Positions 1,419-25,872 of a DNA stretch of 30,147 bases are shown here, one piece after another. The position numbers and the translations under genes were made by a program. Within the stretch, counting starts at the first letter, position 1. Each line of letters opens with the position of its first letter. The DNA is taken from IMG/VR virus record IMGVR_UViG_2778261179_000014, positions 1 through 30,147 of that record; one strand, written 5' to 3'. This DNA comes from a virus (taxonomy: Duplodnaviria; Heunggongvirae; Uroviricota; Caudoviricetes). The notes beneath the pieces are model-generated. The model worked only from the letters and a program-made list of their open reading frames with translations, was not told the DNA's origin and made no database searches.

Positions 1419-3860
1419 TTAAAAATCAGCCTGACTCGGGATCAGTTTTTGCCAGATAGCTGAAACGTATTTTGCCTGGTAACGAGCGTCATCAAGTGCA
1501 TTATGGCGCTCACCTTCGAATGGAATAGCCGTTCTGGCATCGAAGTCTATGGCTTTCCCCAGCTCAACGATTGTGCGTACATCGCGATCGTTGTAGTAAC
1601 GCCACGGGCAGGGGATCCCCTGCCGTTCGTATGAACGGCGCAAAATCGTGTTGTCGAAGTTGGCTCCATTTCCCCAGACCTGAACAAAAAATTCACCGGA
1701 GTTTTCGTCGATAAATTCCCGCAATTGTAACAGTGCATCATCTAACGGGATTTCATCGGTCATAATGGCAGATTGCGCTTCGCGTGATTGCTTAAGCCAC
1801 CATTTAATGGTGTCCCGATCAATGACTCCGCCAGCAGTTTCCAGATCGATAGTCTTACTAAATTCCGGTCCCATATCTCCGGTTTGCGGATCGAAAAATA
1901 TTGCACCTATTGAGATGATCGGGGCATCAGGATTTTTTCCCATGGTTTCAAGGTCGATCATTAGATGGTCACACGTCCTGCTGGTGGATGTGATTTCGCG
2001 ATGACCGTTCACCTTAATTGAGTGATCTGCCGTCTCGCCAGTTTTATTATCGCTGGCGTGATGCTGATTGCCGCCAGGGTTCTCCTTGTGTGGATGTTCA
2101 GCGCCTTCCATTTCCTCCGGATCATTTTCCTGAACTTCAACCTGATTCTCTTCATCGAATGTTTCCTGGTATGTTGCGTCGCCCATCACCGCGCCACAAT
2201 CAGGGCAGTTGCCGCCACCGCTTTGACCGCAGGCGGTGCAGACTTTTTCCGGTTCCTGTTGCGCTACTGGTTCGGATTGTTTCGTTTCTGGCTCGTTTTG
2301 TAACGCATTTGGGCTGTTTTGTTCCGCTTTTTGGTCGTTCCGTTCCGATTCATGCTGGTTCTGGTTCACAGAATCGCGAGTCTGGATCCCCTTGACCCAT
2401 TTCGGATCATTAGGGTCGCTAATCCCCTCAACAAATTCACCACGCGATACAGCAAGTAACTTATCGGCGTCAGGCTGGCTGATATTGGCTGCCTGCATAA
2501 TTTTGTTTACTTCGTCAGCGGTGACTTTTACTTGGTTAGCGGAACTCACCTGCGACTGAGCATCCAGCGACTGCGCGTTCTGGCCATGTTCAGTTGTATC
2601 CGGTTCCATTGTTTCAGTTGTTGCCTGTTCACCTGCCATTGCGTCAGATGGTTGTGGTTTTTCTTCTTCTGTTTCACGCTTAGTAACCACCTCGCGGTTA
2701 ATTTCTTCCAGGATATCTTTTTCCGGCGTATGCCGGGCAGCTGTGAGAATTTCCTTGCTGGGGTTCTCGTGATCAGTTTCCGTCAAATAGGCGTTGATAT
2801 ACCCCTGAAGGCGTCCCGGGTAGTGATAAAATTCAGGGTGTGCGCTTCGGATAAGTGCAAAAATAGCGGCGCGGGAATAGTCCAGAATACCCGGGGTTGC
2901 ACGAAGTGCTGCGGACCATTCTTTGAACGGACTTTCTTTGTTCAGGACTACTTCTTTTGCGCGACGATAAACGCTGCCCGGAATTTCATAAATATTAAAA
3001 TCCATCGGAAGTGTGGCTGCTGCAATCTCCACATCCAGTGTGTCGAGGGTGTGTACTAAATTCGGATTGCGATCGGTTTTGTTCCCACCGCCAGCATTAG
3101 CACCGGAAGCCGTGCGGGTGATGCGTGAAACACGATTTCCTTTCATCCACTCTTTTGTCAGCAGACCCCGATCAGTGTAGTCAGCGTCCAGGTATGCTTC
3201 GAAAAAAGCAGTTATTAGTCCCAAGTCTGAATTACTAGGATTAGGGAAAACTTTGTCAGTGTCACGAACCAGTTTGTGGAGGTCGCGAATCTCCAGCGAG
3301 TCGAGCAGACTGGTTTTATGCGAAATAGCCAGGGCAGTAACAGCCGGTAGTTCTTCAGCCCGTGCAATGTGTAATGCCTGGAGTTCGTCGCGTGAAACGT
3401 GCGTTACTGGTTTTTCGCTGCCGTGTTGAGCAAGCCAACGAATGGGCAGTTCCTGACCGGAGACAGGCAGAAGCATGCTCTCCTCAATCTCAGTCATGTC
3501 TTCGCCGTTGATGTTGGTATTGTCAGTGCTAGCTGGTTTGCCCTGAACAGAGGGGGAAGGGCCGATAAATGTCATTGTGATGCCATCTTTCCCGCCTTTT
3601 TCATAGCGGTTGCAGAATTCAGTATCAAACACGCCTTCTGGCGGAAGGTCGTCAACAACGGGCAAATTGACGCGGACGGGTTTTTTAAAGTCGTCTTCAT
3701 CATAATCGTTGTCATCCATTGCGGTAATGCAGCGGGAGATTGCAACAGATAATTTTTTTGCTGTAGTCCAGTAAAAACCACCTTTAATTCCCAGGCGTTT
3801 TCTTACTTTGTCATTTTTTGCTTCGCAATATAGTGCAAATTCTTCTTTATCAGTGCTCAT
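1419..3860 (-). CDS. Large exonuclease with C-terminal DnaQ-like DEDDh 3'-5' exonuclease domain
   Basis: 813 aa. C-terminal about 200 aa carry Exo I (MIDLETMG), Exo II ([12 protein letters not shown]) and Exo III (HNALDDARY) motifs. Long acidic, low-complexity N-terminal region with a CxxC..CxxC cluster ([16 protein letters not shown]). Proteins of this architecture in E. coli prophages are often annotated exodeoxyribonuclease VIII-like; that is from memory and unverified. Confidence 0.8.
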
Positions 3861-3953
3861 TATTGATAAACCTCATCACAGATTTAAGGGTGAACAAATC
3901 TCTGCCATTGCTGACATATAAGAATGAAACTGGATATTTATTACGGAACTGTT

Positions 3954-4145
3954 TTAAAGACCTGCCGGGATTTCGATATTATCCTGGTGAATAACTTTAT
4001 CGACCGGGTAACAGTTACCGGGAATTTTCTGTTCGGTTGCTGCTGCCATACATTCCTGCATTGTTCTGTGAACACTGACTGCAATATCAACTGGCTCTCC
4101 GGAAACAAGAAAAACCGTCAGAATAAGTGCAAATACTGGATTCAT
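3954..4145 (-). CDS. Hypothetical small protein with hydrophobic N-terminus
   Basis: 63 aa from ATG at 4145 (AAGGA 8 nt upstream); the start overlaps the stop of the upstream gene as ATGA (translational coupling); N-terminus MNPVFALILTVFLVSG is hydrophobic. Confidence 0.4.
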   Translation of the reverse strand: MNPVFALILTVFLVSGEPVDIAVSVHRTMQECMAAATEQKIPGNCYPVDKVIHQDNIEIPAGL

Positions 4146-4330
4146 TGTGCACATCCTTTTGGCATCAGACGTAAACGGGCCAGCATTGAAACAATGCATA
4201 CTTTATTTAATAACTCCCGTTCGTGTTTTCTTTTGTTAATGGCCTCTTCAGTGAATACAGGATTACTGATAGTGACACCAATTTCAAAACAACCTTCAGA
4301 CGTATTAACGTTTGGTAATAACGTTTTCAT
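4142..4330 (-). CDS. Hypothetical small protein
   Basis: 62 aa from internal ATG at 4330 with GAGGG 7 nt upstream; coupled to the downstream gene by ATGA overlap. The longer track ORF (to 4435) lacks an RBS. Confidence 0.4.
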   Translation of the reverse strand: MKTLLPNVNTSEGCFEIGVTISNPVFTEEAINKRKHERELLNKVCIVSMLARLRLMPKGCAQ

Positions 4331-4868
4331 TATCGCGCCCTCAACAATGAGTTTTGTGATGCGGTGCCTGGTGCCTCCAGGTGACGTTAACCAGTTAACA
4401 ATTAACGCCGGATACAGAGAATCCACCCATAACACTGTTTTTGGTTTTAACTGTTCCGCGTGCGCTTAGCCGCATTCACCGCATCACAAAATTCACTTTA
4501 AAAATGGCGGCAGAGCAGTCACGGAGTAAAACTGATACCGCCAAACGTCACCAGAAAATTGATAACAGAGGGCGTTGCAGCGGGGTTGTCACTTAAGCGT
4601 ATGGTCAACCTGACAACCCGGTGTCCTCAACGGGGAAGGAATAACCCCGCCATACTTACCGCCGCGCCATTTCGCGGAGTGCCACAACCGGAAGCGCACG
4701 GTCGACGAAAATTTAACGACAGGCTATCTATAAACCAGCTACCTCGCCGTACGCTTTCGCGTTGTGTGCCTGCTTTTAACCACGTCAGGCGAGGTGGTTC
4801 CTGTTATTCCCCAACAACAAGAAATTTGTATAATCCGGATATCCCCAACAACGAGAAGAGTACTCAAC

Positions 4869-5324
4869 GTGATAGCAGAACTGTCAGCGGCTATGGCTGC
4901 GATAAAGGAGACAGCTGGTCTCGCTAAGGTTATTAATGACGCAAAAACGGATGCAGAAGTTAAAGCCGCAACTATTGAACTTCAGAACAAACTAATCACG
5001 CTTCAGGCGGAATGCTTCTCTCTTTGCGATGCGATCCGCTTTCGTGATGAAGAGATAATGCATCTCAAAGCAAAAATTGCAGAGACAGAAGATTTTCAGC
5101 GACAGGCGGAAGGTTACAAGCTTAACAAGCTTGATTCTGGAACCCTTGTATATTCCAAGAAGCAATTTATAGGCGATACTGAGATAACTGTGCATCTTTG
5201 CCCACAATGTTTTGGAAAAAAGGTAATATCTGTACTTCAGCCAATGGAAATAATGCGCTTTGATGCTCATTTTCGTACTTTTTGCCCCGCTTGCAATAAT
5301 AAGTTCTGGATGAACTCAAGATAA
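4869..5324 (+). CDS. Hypothetical coiled-coil protein with C-terminal CPxC...CPxC zinc ribbon
   Basis: Plus-strand ORF inside an otherwise minus-strand early-left region; perfect TATAAT at 4829-4834 upstream; candidate starts GTG 4869 or ATG 4893; N-terminal heptad-like region (ELQNKLITLQAE..., LKAKIAETEDFQRQAEG) and C-terminal HLCPQCFG...FCPACNNKF. Confidence 0.6.
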   Translation: MIAELSAAMAAIKETAGLAKVINDAKTDAEVKAATIELQNKLITLQAECFSLCDAIRFRDEEIMHLKAKIAETEDFQRQAEGYKLNKLDSGTLVYSKKQFIGDTEITVHLCPQCFGKKVISVLQPMEIMRFDAHFRTFCPACNNKFWMNSR

Positions 5325-5459
5325 TTAACCGTTTAAATAAGTTGGGACTATCCAGATTTTTAAAGAACGTACCGGATGCTCACCCGTGTCCGGCGCACGC
5401 ACTCCACCTCACCCGTGGAGAACTCCTTAATTACCAACCTTAGCTTCGTTGGTTAGCTA

Positions 5460-5678
5460 TTAGCGCGGGTATGTAATCATTCTGGCAATGCTTAATGCTG
5501 CTGCTTTTTCCAGCCTGGTGATATCCTGCTCCAGAGCGGACAGATTTTCAGCCTGCTTAGCCCTGGCTTCATTGGCCCATTTCAGATCCTGCGCTGCATT
5601 AATTTTCTGGCGCATCCACTCATAAAGTTCATCATCGGTATAGTCTGGCGCGATGATGACGGGTTCTCGTTTCTGCAT
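5460..5678 (-). CDS. Hypothetical early-left protein
   Basis: 72 aa, ATG at 5678 with GAGGAA upstream; last gene of a three-gene leftward cluster downstream of the OL region. Confidence 0.5.
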   Translation of the reverse strand: MQKREPVIIAPDYTDDELYEWMRQKINAAQDLKWANEARAKQAENLSALEQDITRLEKAAALSIARMITYPR

Positions 5679-5707
5679 ACTGATTCCTCGCGGTGCTGCT
5701 TCGCTTA

Positions 5708-5836
5708 TCAGCCGTTAGATTTTGCCGAGCTGGAAAGCGCCTGTTTAAACTCACTGAAGCTGAGAGCTTCTTCGCCTTCGGCAAGGCCTTCGAAGTATTC
5801 TTCGTAAGCCTTTTCCATGATTGTGTCGAAATCCAT
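5708..5836 (-). CDS. Hypothetical small acidic protein (42 aa)
   Basis: Hand-translated MDFDTIMEKAYEEYFEGLAEGEEALSFSEFKQALSSSAKSNG; AGGTGA RBS 5 nt upstream; start 1 nt after the stop of the upstream gene. Below the ORF-track size cutoff. Confidence 0.35.
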   Translation of the reverse strand: MDFDTIMEKAYEEYFEGLAEGEEALSFSEFKQALSSSAKSNG

Positions 5837-10606: not shown

Positions 10607-10760
10607 TTTTATATTGGCGAGGTAACGGGAGTTAAGTAGAATGGCTGCGGGTGCTTGAGGCTATCTGTCTCAGGCATGAACACCAAAGGCAGATAGAGAA
10701 AAGCCCCAGTTAACATTACGCGTCCTGCAAGACGCTTAACATTAATCTGAGGCTCAATCT

Positions 10761-10973
10761 ATGAACGGCAAATCTAGGTTAGCCTCTTACGTGCCGAAAG
10801 GCAAGGAGAAGCAGGCTATGAAGCAGCAAAAGGCGATGTTAGTCGCCCTGATCGTCATCTGTTTAACCGTCATTGTGACGGCACTGGTAACGAGGAAAGA
10901 CCTCTGCGAGGTACGAATCCGAACCGGCCAGACGGAGGTCGCTGTCTTCACAGCTTACGAACCTGAGGAGTAA
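10761..10973 (+). CDS. Mok-like upstream reading frame of the hok locus
   Basis: 70-aa ORF that includes the hok frame with a 19-codon N-terminal extension from ATG 10761. Confidence 0.4.
   Translation: MNGKSRLASYVPKGKEKQAMKQQKAMLVALIVICLTVIVTALVTRKDLCEVRIRTGQTEVAVFTAYEPEE
10818..10973 (+). CDS. hokD: Hok/Gef-family type I toxin (HokD/RelF-like, 51 aa)
   Basis: MKQQKAMLVALIVICLTVIVTALVTRKDLCEVRIRTGQTEVAVFTAYEPEE; AAGGAG RBS 9 nt upstream; single TM segment plus the conserved C and Y. Close match to my recollection of E. coli HokD. Confidence 0.85.
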   Translation: MKQQKAMLVALIVICLTVIVTALVTRKDLCEVRIRTGQTEVAVFTAYEPEE

Positions 10974-11042: not shown

Positions 11043-11062
11043 ACCCGCTTCGGCGTTTTTTC
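11043..11062 (+). terminator. Putative 3' hairpin / terminator of the hok mRNA
   Basis: CGC-TTCG-GCG short hairpin followed by TTTTTT; preceded by GCATCCTCAACGCACC, which could pair with the 5' leader GGTGCTTGAGGC (fold-back element). Confidence 0.4.
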
Positions 11063-11116
11063 CGTTGATTAACTCTAGTTATTAGAGAACCGAACTTTTA
11101 TTGATGGGGCAGGGAG

Positions 11117-11509
11117 ATGAAGAAACTTGTTTTAGTCGCAGGTGTAATGATTGCAACAGTAATGTTGGGAGGGTGTGCAGCAAAGGTCGATCCAGCGTTG
11201 AAAGCAGAAGCAATGAAGCCACTAACATGTAATGATGAAAAGCAATGTGACTTTTATTGGAAACGAGCGCAATTCTGGTTGGCTAATAATTCCTCATGGA
11301 AAATTCAAACGGCGACAGACACGCTAATTTCCACTTATAATCCCTCTCCAAATAGTCCATTCCTCGCTTATCAAGTGAGTAAAATGCCAAATGAAGATGG
11401 ATCCTCAAGAATTTTCATCAAGCCTTTTTGCGATAATATGTTTGGCTGTCAACCAAACCCCTATCAGGCAGTTGTTTCCTTTAAAAACTTCGTTAAAACA
11501 GGGCAGTAG
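11117..11509 (+). CDS. Lipoprotein of unknown function (moron)
   Basis: 130 aa; GGGAG RBS; signal peptide ending in lipobox LGGC (MKKLVLVAGVMIATVMLGGC); several Cys in the mature part; followed by a strong terminator. Confidence 0.75.
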   Translation: MKKLVLVAGVMIATVMLGGCAAKVDPALKAEAMKPLTCNDEKQCDFYWKRAQFWLANNSSWKIQTATDTLISTYNPSPNSPFLAYQVSKMPNEDGSSRIFIKPFCDNMFGCQPNPYQAVVSFKNFVKTGQ

Positions 11510-11707
11510 TGTATAGCTTGGACGATAAATTATTAGTGAAAACGCCGTAAACCCTCACCCAATGTGGACTAAGTCTATCAAACATGACTGTGATGATTAG
11601 TCCGTAGTTGTTGCCTATGAAATCTGGATTGAGTCAGGGTTTAATCCAATAATTATTCTATCGTTCCTTTACAAGTCCGGTATATTACTTTCAGTTTGTT
11701 TTAGCAT

Positions 11708-11733
11708 ACCCGCTTCGGCGGGTTTTGTTTTTT
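11708..11733 (+). terminator. Rho-independent terminator
   Basis: ACCCGC-TTCG-GCGGGT hairpin followed by TTTTGTTTTTT. Confidence 0.8.
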
Positions 11734-11805
11734 CCTGGCATTCTGGTTTACAATTCGCACGCCAGCCTGAACAACTGGCACCTGCTGCGCCAGCAGAGAC
11801 AACCG

Positions 11806-12084
11806 ATGGCGCACGATACCAAATTACACAATTCTGATGATTCTGCCGTCTTTGCCAGCAGGCACGGGCGGCGTTCCCGCACTTTCAAATCTGACTGGTT
11901 CCAGCATGACCCATGTACTGAAGAACAGGCCGAATGGCTAATTCATAACTATCGCAGACGCGGATACGAGATTAAGAAAGCCCTCAGCCTCGATTATCGT
12001 CACTGGATAATCTATGTCAGGCTCCCTTATTCCGAACGCCCACCGCGCCCATCCCGCACATACCAGCAACGGATCTGGAGGTAA
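11806..12084 (+). CDS. Hypothetical basic protein
   Basis: 92 aa from internal ATG 11806; stop overlaps the RBS/start of the next gene (GGAGGTAACGTG). Confidence 0.4.
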   Translation: MAHDTKLHNSDDSAVFASRHGRRSRTFKSDWFQHDPCTEEQAEWLIHNYRRRGYEIKKALSLDYRHWIIYVRLPYSERPPRPSRTYQQRIWR

Positions 12085-14403: not shown

Positions 14404-14479
14404 GGCCCTTTAGCTCAGTGGTGAGAGCGAGCGACTCATAATCGCCAGGTCGCTGGTTCAAATCCAGCAAGGGCCACCA
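14404..14479 (+). tRNA. tRNA with anticodon CAU, Ile2 (lysidine)-like
   Basis: Hand-folded cloverleaf: acceptor GGCCCTT/AAGGGCC, D-stem GCTC/GAGC, anticodon loop CTCATAA, T-arm GCTGG-TTCAAAT-CCAGC, encoded CCA. Resembles E. coli ileX from memory. Confidence 0.8.
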
Positions 14480-14480
14480 A

Positions 14481-14557
14481 CCGCCACTAGCTCATCAGGA
14501 AAGAGCGTCAACCCTTTAAGTTGAGTGTGCGAGGTTCGAGTCCCCGGTGGCGGTCCA
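14481..14557 (+). tRNA. tRNA-like gene with atypical anticodon loop CCTTTAA (anticodon UUU, Lys-type, isotype uncertain)
   Basis: Acceptor CCGCCAC/GTGGCGG (7 bp, C1-G72), D-stem GCTC/GAGC, anticodon stem TCAAC/GTTGA, T-arm CGAGG-TTCGAGT-CCCCG with one A-C mismatch, encoded CCA. Position 33 is C rather than the near-universal U. Confidence 0.55.
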
Positions 14558-14559
14558 GT

Positions 14560-14635
<76 letters not shown>

Positions 14636-14638
14636 TAT

Positions 14639-14713
<75 letters not shown>

Positions 14714-25851: not shown

Positions 25852-25872
25852 ACCGCTTCGGCGGTTTTTTTC
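25852..25872 (+). terminator. Hairpin plus T-run between chaperone and tape measure genes
   Basis: ACCGC-TTCG-GCGGT followed by TTTTTTT. Confidence 0.55.

Follow-up and report, generated by a model that had tools for sequence, protein, structure and literature searches.

The window, which is the whole 30,147-nucleotide stretch of virus record IMGVR_UViG_2778261179_000014 analysed here, is a Qin/lambdoid-type Escherichia coli prophage that carries a 130-amino acid (aa) prolipoprotein gene on a 665-bp cassette inserted within the terminator hairpin of the hokD toxin gene. The gene product belongs to a large and almost entirely unnamed protein family whose mobile carriers include prophages, large Acinetobacter plasmids and ColE1 plasmids of only 2.5 kb. 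We favour the view that this lipoprotein excludes incoming phages or imported toxins from the carrier cell, a reading to which we assign a probability of about 0.4.

The open reading frame (ORF) is clearly a real gene under purifying selection, because the ratio of nonsynonymous to synonymous substitution rates (dN/dS) is 0.10–0.25 between E. coli alleles and 0.11 when compared to an 81%-identical Enterobacter orthologue (dS 1.2), and because the protein matches PHROG 16082, a family of unknown function, over its full length (residues 1–130 against profile positions 1–130, E = 2.6e-84). RefSeq lists the product as a hypothetical protein (WP_000737636.1). The N-terminus, MKKLVLVAGVMIATVMLGGC, fits a lipoprotein signal pattern, and the signal sequence MKKLVLVAGVMIATVMLGG-C is of the canonical type. 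Substrates of Lgt and LspA were recognised by a positively charged n-region followed by a hydrophobic h-region and the lipobox [LVI][ASTVIG][GAS]C, and the arrangement MKK-LVLVAGVMIATVM-LGGC fits this PS51257-like pattern, with residues 1–19 forming the signal peptide and residue 20 (codon 11174–11176) being the lipid-attachment cysteine. The lipobox cysteine is present in all 94 aligned homologues. The residue that follows it is alanine in the E. coli copy and in 78 of the 94 homologues, and aspartate in none of them; by the well-established +2 rule of lipoprotein sorting in E. coli, the protein is therefore predicted to be sorted to the outer membrane. Translation would start behind a purine-rich ribosome-binding region, which is conserved as GGGGATAGGGAT in the Pantoea copies.

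The mature lipoprotein (111 aa, 12.6 kDa, isoelectric point 8.6) holds four further cysteines at positions 38, 44, 105 and 111, all of which are invariant in the 94-sequence alignment together with Cys20, W48, T73 and N107. An AlphaFold2 (AF2) model built with the 94 sequences reached a predicted local distance difference test score (pLDDT) of 91.2 (the five models ranged from 87 to 91) and has an alpha-beta4-alpha topology, in which a short tether helix is followed by a helix at 41–58, four antiparallel strands and a second helix at 115–128. An earlier and shallower model gave the same topology. The initial annotation of this DNA had proposed structure prediction as a check, and the fold matches thus obtained (Flpp3, the N-terminal domain of BamC, KA1) are generic only: KA1, START and TBP-like domains score as well as Flpp3 and BamC-N, hence the fold provides no evidence for family membership or function.

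The same annotation had stated that the mature domain belongs to no family that could be named, which agrees with our searches of Pfam, NCBIfam, PADLOC and the PDB (by sequence and by profile), where no significant match was found; among the PADLOC defence models no family matched even at E ≤1. Matches to Pfam DUF6491, obtained for 9 of 49 members with a best E of 0.005, did not reach the gathering score, and PHROG 4186 is more distantly related; neither of these two families has an assigned function. The match to the Cor PHROG (E = 0.007) covers residues 1–44 only, which is mostly signal peptide. Furthermore, we found no papers on WP_000737636, WP_032201349, DUF6491 or phage resistance conferred by a lipoprotein of ColE1 plasmids. 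The family is large, since a profile search of 1.84 billion cluster representatives recovered 1141 clusters (50% identity) at E ≤1e-3 and 532 at E ≤1e-10, nearly all of them unnamed and many metagenomic. The gene is present in only 2 of 50,697 deposited phage genomes. The 90%-identity protein cluster that contains the lipoprotein also lists many Hok-family toxins and is represented by an 87-aa fragment; this mixture looks like a clustering artefact, and its 1137 members are therefore not counts of the lipoprotein.

The cassette is defined by comparison with phage vB_EcoS-640R1, in which hokD is followed by a single hairpin, ACCCGCTTCGGCGGGTTTTGTTTTTT, and then by rem. In the window, 13 bp from the left half of the hokD hairpin occur as a direct repeat on either side of the cassette (at 11043 and 11708), and the boundaries of the cassette are ambiguous within this repeat, such that 11043–11707 is equivalent to the interval given in Table 1. 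The left hairpin copy is without the stem-closing GGG, and in its restored form the stem would read ACCCGCTTCGGCGGG; it marks the left junction of the insert and folds at −4.1 kcal/mol, like shuffled sequence, as compared to −13.1 and −14.7 kcal/mol for intact copies. The right copy is an intact intrinsic terminator with a 6-bp GC-rich stem, a UUCG loop and a U-tract (−13.1 kcal/mol, z = −3.5), and it is the original hokD terminator, which was partly duplicated by the insertion and now ends the lipoprotein transcript. The initial annotation was thus right to describe a 130-aa lipoprotein gene that is inserted between the hok locus and nin-like genes and followed by a strong terminator, but not in ascribing this terminator to the gene itself, as it belongs to the resident hokD and lies 198 nucleotides (nt) beyond the stop codon.

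The E. coli copies of the gene always occupy the slot between hokD and rem. The full 801-bp segment is present in 255 of 5426 complete E. coli genomes, while 4470 of them match parts of the query only, such as the flanks, and the 196 nt that lie 3' of the stop codon are confined to the same 255 genomes. The same crippled junction was found in 59 of the 60 E. coli-type loci checked, which points to a single ancestral insertion. At the remaining locus, in E. coli prophage IMGVR_UViG_2537561932_000021 (1–331), an insertion sequence (IS) replaces the hok-side junction just upstream of the lipoprotein start codon, and the contig begins inside it; the element was assigned to the IS3 family by visual inspection of its transposase orfA-like sequence. 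The homology shared by the E. coli and donor-type cassettes extends across the hairpin, so that the insert could plausibly have arisen through recombination between near-identical terminator hairpins. Cassettes of this kind may also be exchanged among phages by recombination at such CCCGCTTCGGCGGG hairpins.

The 3' untranslated part of the cassette contains an inverted repeat (11548–11563 and 11628–11643), whose loop holds about 69 nt that are absent from the shorter alleles of E. coli EC416, E. coli E9 and phage 606R7, where the loop is 12 nt long. No function is apparent for this repeat, and the 198-nt tail gave no Rfam match and no unusual folding energy (z = −1.1 against shuffled sequences) when considered as a structured RNA.

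The cassettes of Enterobacter and Pantoea sp. begin with the same kind of hairpin, (A)CCCGCTTCGG(C/T)GGGTTTT, and the Enterobacter, Pantoea sp. and Pantoea ananatis copies share an aligned extended −10-like element, TGnTAGGAT, in place of which the Yersinia copy has the extended −10-like TGGTAAAAT. In E. coli this position, which lies in a palindrome, reads AGTTATTAG and is without the TG and the final T. When the 61 nt that separate the left hairpin from the ATG were scanned for two-hexamer sigma-70 promoters, no site was found, and the same scan found no promoter in two relatives. The promoter of the E. coli copy thus appears to be degenerate or absent. We infer that it is transcribed mainly by read-through of the crippled hairpin, from the hok promoter (a sigma-70 scan placed a promoter-like site at 10614–10642, upstream of hok) and from the early-right operon. 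The crippled upstream hairpin, together with the cI-operon position of a Thiobacillus homologue described below, suggests expression in lysogens.

These features bear on whether the element can be called a moron, as it was in the initial annotation. According to the definition applied here (Juhala et al. 2000; PMC3594210), a moron is extra DNA with respect to collinear relatives, which is the case at the hokD-rem site that is empty in vB_EcoS-640R1, and it has a distinct base composition, which is also the case, with 38.9% GC in the cassette versus 48.2% in the left and 54.7% in the right flank. It should also have its own promoter and terminator and be expressed from the repressed prophage. 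In the E. coli copy no promoter of its own is recognisable and the strong terminator is that of hokD, whereas the relatives have their own terminators 30–60 nt after the stop codon. Because its terminator is borrowed and its promoter is absent, the E. coli copy conforms only partly to the textbook definition, and it is a moron in the broad sense.

The genomic positions of the homologues are highly variable. In Yersinia enterocolitica (57% identity) the gene is in the early region of a prophage, between parDE and sieB. In Thiobacillus (42%) it lies on the same strand as, and downstream of, a cI-like HTH-S24 repressor gene, with its start codon overlapping the preceding ORF, which is where rexAB is located in lambda. 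This operon (3707–5827) encodes on one strand the cI-like repressor, a 217-aa protein of unknown function (PHROG 16260), the lipoprotein homologue and an SNase-family nuclease, and it may be a module expressed in the lysogen. In a metagenomic prophage-like contig, the homologue adjoins a ydaS/cro-like gene and a VapE primase gene. Other copies are located around the tail genes: between the tape measure gene and gpM in Enterobacter hormaechei (81%), upstream of a gpM fragment in a Phytobacter prophage remnant, between gpI and gpJ in Pantoea ananatis and two IMG/VR phages (73–76%), and between the antirepressor gene (ant) and gpI in Pantoea sp. and another viral contig (85%). The homologue of the Pantoea-type prophages is immediately followed by another lipoprotein-like gene that is unrelated to it (PHROG 914, or PHROG 890 'lipoprotein'; L015 6374–6721, L085 4374–4784 and L086 4332–4679), and the two genes make up a small lipoprotein island adjoining gpI/gpJ. 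A distant metagenomic phage homologue (32%) is found between chaperone-like and tape-measure-like genes, both of which were assigned by position only; judged in the same way, its location may correspond to that of the exclusion moron gp15 in HK97 (PMC3594210). Some homologues are in regions rich in IS elements, toxin-antitoxin, Mob or TIR genes, one of which resembles a defence island.

In addition, the family has spread beyond phages. ColRNAI (ColE1-type) plasmids of 2.5, 4.0 and 8.6 kb in Citrobacter, Salmonella and Enterobacter (for example NZ_CP141253.1, 2519 bp, and NZ_CP091549.1, 3988 bp) carry a 42%-identical homologue, WP_032201349.1, which has a promoter-like element and a terminator and is the largest annotated ORF, the transposon genes of the 8.6-kb plasmid aside. 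As the main cargo of the 2.5–4 kb plasmids, this homologue functions as a single gene. An exact-sequence look-up also placed it on short contigs from several Salmonella serovars, E. coli and Klebsiella. Acinetobacter accounts for 126 of the plasmid matches, and on plasmids of about 110 kb (A. baumannii NZ_CP046537.1, 4776–5345) the domain is fused to LysM (hhalign probability 99.5%). Metagenomic members of the family include C-terminal PDZ fusions and a tandem duplication (P0117).

Taken together, a periplasm-facing outer-membrane lipoprotein that protects the envelope is the best supported interpretation, given that the protein is exported, acts as a single gene, is kept under purifying selection on many mobile elements, and recurs where phages keep exclusion genes, namely in the immunity region, beside sieB, in a cI operon and around the tail-tip genes. 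That the function is carried by one gene also follows from the lack of a fixed neighbour. In the proposed mechanism, a horizontally acquired accessory cassette would have recombined into the hokD terminator hairpin of the prophage and would be transcribed from the constitutive hok promoter and by early-right transcription through the crippled hairpin, with the transcript ending at position 11733. The lipoprotein would act alone, without a partner gene, presenting its compact 12.6-kDa, disulfide-containing domain to the periplasm, where its target would probably be a conserved envelope component, either an outer-membrane protein or a peptidoglycan-associated factor. The carrier cell would thereby become refractory to incoming phages at the step of adsorption or DNA entry, or to imported toxins. 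Such exclusion would operate from the periplasmic side, as in the case of Llp and Rtp45, by an unrelated protein. The initial annotation had put forward superinfection exclusion or lysogenic conversion as candidate roles, and the settings of the relatives (cI operon, sieB neighbourhood, tail-tip slots and plasmid cargo) lean in this direction. Exclusion lipoproteins that are already known engage an outer-membrane receptor from its periplasmic side (PMC12685063), and the Llp-FhuA and Rtp45-LptDE structures provide precedents for this mode of action (PMC9586334; PMC12685063). Action in the periplasm or close to the cell wall is also indicated by the PDZ and LysM fusions, which would suit an inhibitor or binder of a periplasmic or peptidoglycan-associated protein just as well.

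Several observations weigh against exclusion. By sequence, the protein is unrelated to Llp, Cor, Rtp45 and Bor and to every PADLOC defence model, and its mature form of 111 aa has about double the length of the known exclusion lipoproteins, which have about 60 aa. With a dN/dS of about 0.1, there is no signature of an arms race. The E. coli copy is without a recognisable promoter, so that its expression in lysogens is only putative, and one distant homologue occupies a chromosomal-looking site among housekeeping genes. Moreover, linkage and co-variation with a receptor-binding protein were not observed: the gene is about 17 kb from gpJ in the E. coli prophage, adjacency to J is restricted to the Pantoea phages, and the C-terminal domains of gpJ are unrelated in phages with 73–85%-identical copies (four carrier prophages). 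If the lipoprotein excludes, its target is consequently a conserved host component and not the receptor of the carrier phage itself. Masking of the phage's own receptor was considered separately and is argued against by the absence of a common gpJ receptor-binding domain in the carrier prophages.

The lack of co-variation with receptor-binding proteins is compatible with lysogenic conversion for the benefit of the host, by an envelope change that confers, for instance, serum or complement resistance like lambda Bor, stress tolerance or adhesion. Both the location and the kind of product recall Bor, a lipoprotein moron (cited in PMC3594210), and this interpretation also draws on the strong purifying selection on the family and on its carriage by clinical E. 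coli and by small plasmids of Salmonella. We consider it unlikely, however, since no homology to Bor/Iss was found in Pfam, and since the greatest diversity of the family is in environmental metagenomes and non-pathogens (Thiobacillus, Pantoea, Rhodanobacteraceae), where serum resistance is irrelevant. Recurrent placement at the tail tip and in the immunity region fits phage-phage conflict better.

The fusions and the small plasmids lend themselves to another explanation, which we likewise hold to be unlikely, according to which the lipoprotein is an orphan immunity protein or inhibitor of a periplasm-acting enzyme. This enzyme might be a bacteriocin or type VI secretion system peptidoglycan hydrolase, or else a lysin associated with a phage tail, comparable to the gp5 lysozyme that is inhibited by T4 Spackle. 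A small, predicted disulfide-bonded periplasmic domain on a lipid anchor would suit this role, and elsewhere the domain is fused to the peptidoglycan-binding LysM or to PDZ. It is also the stand-alone cargo of ColE1-type plasmids, which are classic carriers of colicin and immunity genes, and its strong conservation is consistent with a conserved enzymatic target. The same evidence of target conservation is shared with exclusion, for which the recurrent association with phage exclusion slots speaks in addition.

A role restricted to lytic growth, either in masking receptors on lysing cells and debris (lytic conversion of the T5 Llp type) or in modulating envelope disruption, is quite improbable. 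It would account for the position of the E. coli gene in an early-right (nin-like) transcription unit without a promoter of its own, and for the Enterobacter and Pantoea copies inside the late tail operon, yet the homologues on small plasmids and in the cI operon cannot depend on a lytic programme, the conserved −10-like element and upstream terminator of the relatives suggest independent transcription, and separate spanin and lysis genes are present elsewhere in the window. Finally, a virion structural or tail-assembly protein is very hard to sustain despite the location between tail genes in Enterobacter, Pantoea and one metagenomic phage, and was rejected, because a lipoprotein processed by Sec, Lgt and LspA leaves the cytoplasm, the site of tail assembly, because the gene is located away from the tail module in E. 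coli, Yersinia and Thiobacillus and is also carried by 2.5-kb plasmids, and because closely related phages are without it; a spurious ORF is excluded by the dN/dS of about 0.1 and the 1141 family clusters.

The surrounding prophage is 100% identical to a region of E. coli Ecol_881 that adjoins tRNA-Ser/mtfA. Its gene order comprises DicF/dicB, the repressor region, the replication genes, sok/hokD, the lipoprotein gene and the rem-like gene, followed by DUF968/YdfU, RusA, Q, four tRNAs, the lysis genes, an HK97-type head and lambda-type tail genes. The DicF antisense RNA is at 4505–4556 on the minus strand, in the dicB region (Rfam, 73 bits), and the four tRNA genes (Ile, Lys, Thr and Gly; RefSeq) are at 14404–14710 on the plus strand, between Q and the lysis genes. 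The features of the insertion locus are collected in Table 1.

Table 1. Features of the hokD-rem locus, with positions in the window and the basis of each assignment
Feature	Position	Strand	Basis
sok/hok regulatory region	10649..10823	+	Rfam RF01794 sok, 110 bits
hokD toxin coding sequence	10818..10973	+	RefSeq annotation of identical region, WP_000813254.1
Crippled left copy of the hokD terminator hairpin, ACCCGCTTCGGCG then T-run	11043..11061	+	Direct repeat D1, empty-site alignment
Inserted cassette, 665 bp	11056..11720	+	Absent from vB_EcoS-640R1 hokD-rem site
Palindrome CTCTAGTTATTAGAG at the relatives' extended −10-like position	11073..11087	+	Upstream alignment
Purine-rich ribosome-binding region GGGGCAGGGAG before ATG	11106..11116	+	Read from sequence
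Prolipoprotein coding sequence, 130 aa	11117..11509	+	ORF list, PHROG match, lipobox, AF2 model
3' untranslated part of the cassette, 198 nt (stop codon to terminator)	11510..11707	+	
Intact intrinsic terminator, ACCCGCTTCGGCGGGT plus TTTGTTTTTT	11708..11733	+	Folding, empty-site alignment
rem-like 92-aa gene, right neighbour of the insertion site	11806..12084	+	RefSeq WP_024175747.1, PHROG 1212

The locus offers a clean natural example of a moron that landed inside a terminator hairpin, and the E. coli cassette has apparently given up its promoter in exchange for transcription that reads through from a toxin-antitoxin gene. If the lipoprotein does exclude phages or toxins, it would represent a widespread single-gene envelope defence that has been missed by the catalogues, as PADLOC, Pfam and NCBIfam hold no model of it, and the fact that very small, mobilisable plasmids have spread it would matter for phage therapy and for phage typing in Salmonella and E. 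coli. A bolder and rather doubtful extension of this idea is that the whole unnamed family constitutes a new class of envelope-level exclusion factor, unrelated to Llp, Cor and Rtp45, whose target would be conserved, either in the outer membrane or associated with peptidoglycan, and would not be the receptor of one particular phage. Should the protein exclude neither phages nor toxins, it would be a further prophage ORFan for which a good structural model exists. The useful points are how large and how mobile this unnamed family is, its carriage on small plasmids and the insertion within a terminator hairpin.

With regard to known systems, Flpp3 (DUF3568, Francisella) and the N-terminal domain of BamC are structural neighbours at 11–13% identity only, and a profile-level sequence match to either of them is absent. 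Lambda Bor/Iss is similar in that a prophage moron encodes an outer-membrane lipoprotein of about 100 aa. The lipoprotein differs from it in having no sequence similarity (the Bor family profile gave no Pfam or NCBIfam match beyond noise), in its genomic slot, as the bor gene adjoins the lysis genes, and in the mostly environmental distribution of its family. Llp of T5, Rtp45 of Rtp and Cor of phi80, N15, HK022 and T1 (PMC9586334; PMC12685063; PMC3594210) are approached by those relatives that adjoin the tail-tip gene J. Compared to these proteins, the lipoprotein is larger, without homology and of a different predicted fold, while the E. coli gene is not beside a receptor-binding gene, does not co-vary with the gpJ C-terminal domain, and belongs to a family that also occurs on non-phage plasmids.

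Parallels are also provided by the lambdoid morons, of which HK97 gp15 is the prototype (PMC3594210). HK97 gene 15 sits between the tail chaperone gene and the tape measure gene (PMC3594210), and the window contains a second hairpin of the same type, ACCGCTTCGGCGGT (25852–25865), in the interval that separates gene T (tail assembly) from the tape measure gene, which corresponds to the gp15 moron slot of HK97 and is vacant in this prophage. HK97 gp15 is a small, YebO-like inner-membrane protein, whereas the present gene encodes a predicted outer-membrane lipoprotein of 12.6 kDa with no sequence similarity to it, and unlike gp15 the E. coli copy is without a recognisable promoter and uses the hokD terminator of its host locus. 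Both, however, are extra DNA with a GC content below that of their neighbours and consist of a single small envelope-targeted gene between terminator hairpins, and relatives of the lipoprotein gene are also found in tail-operon slots adjoining the tape measure gene. The lipoprotein represents a cargo family that is new and uncharacterised, and the element belongs to a known kind, that of the phage moron or accessory lipoprotein.

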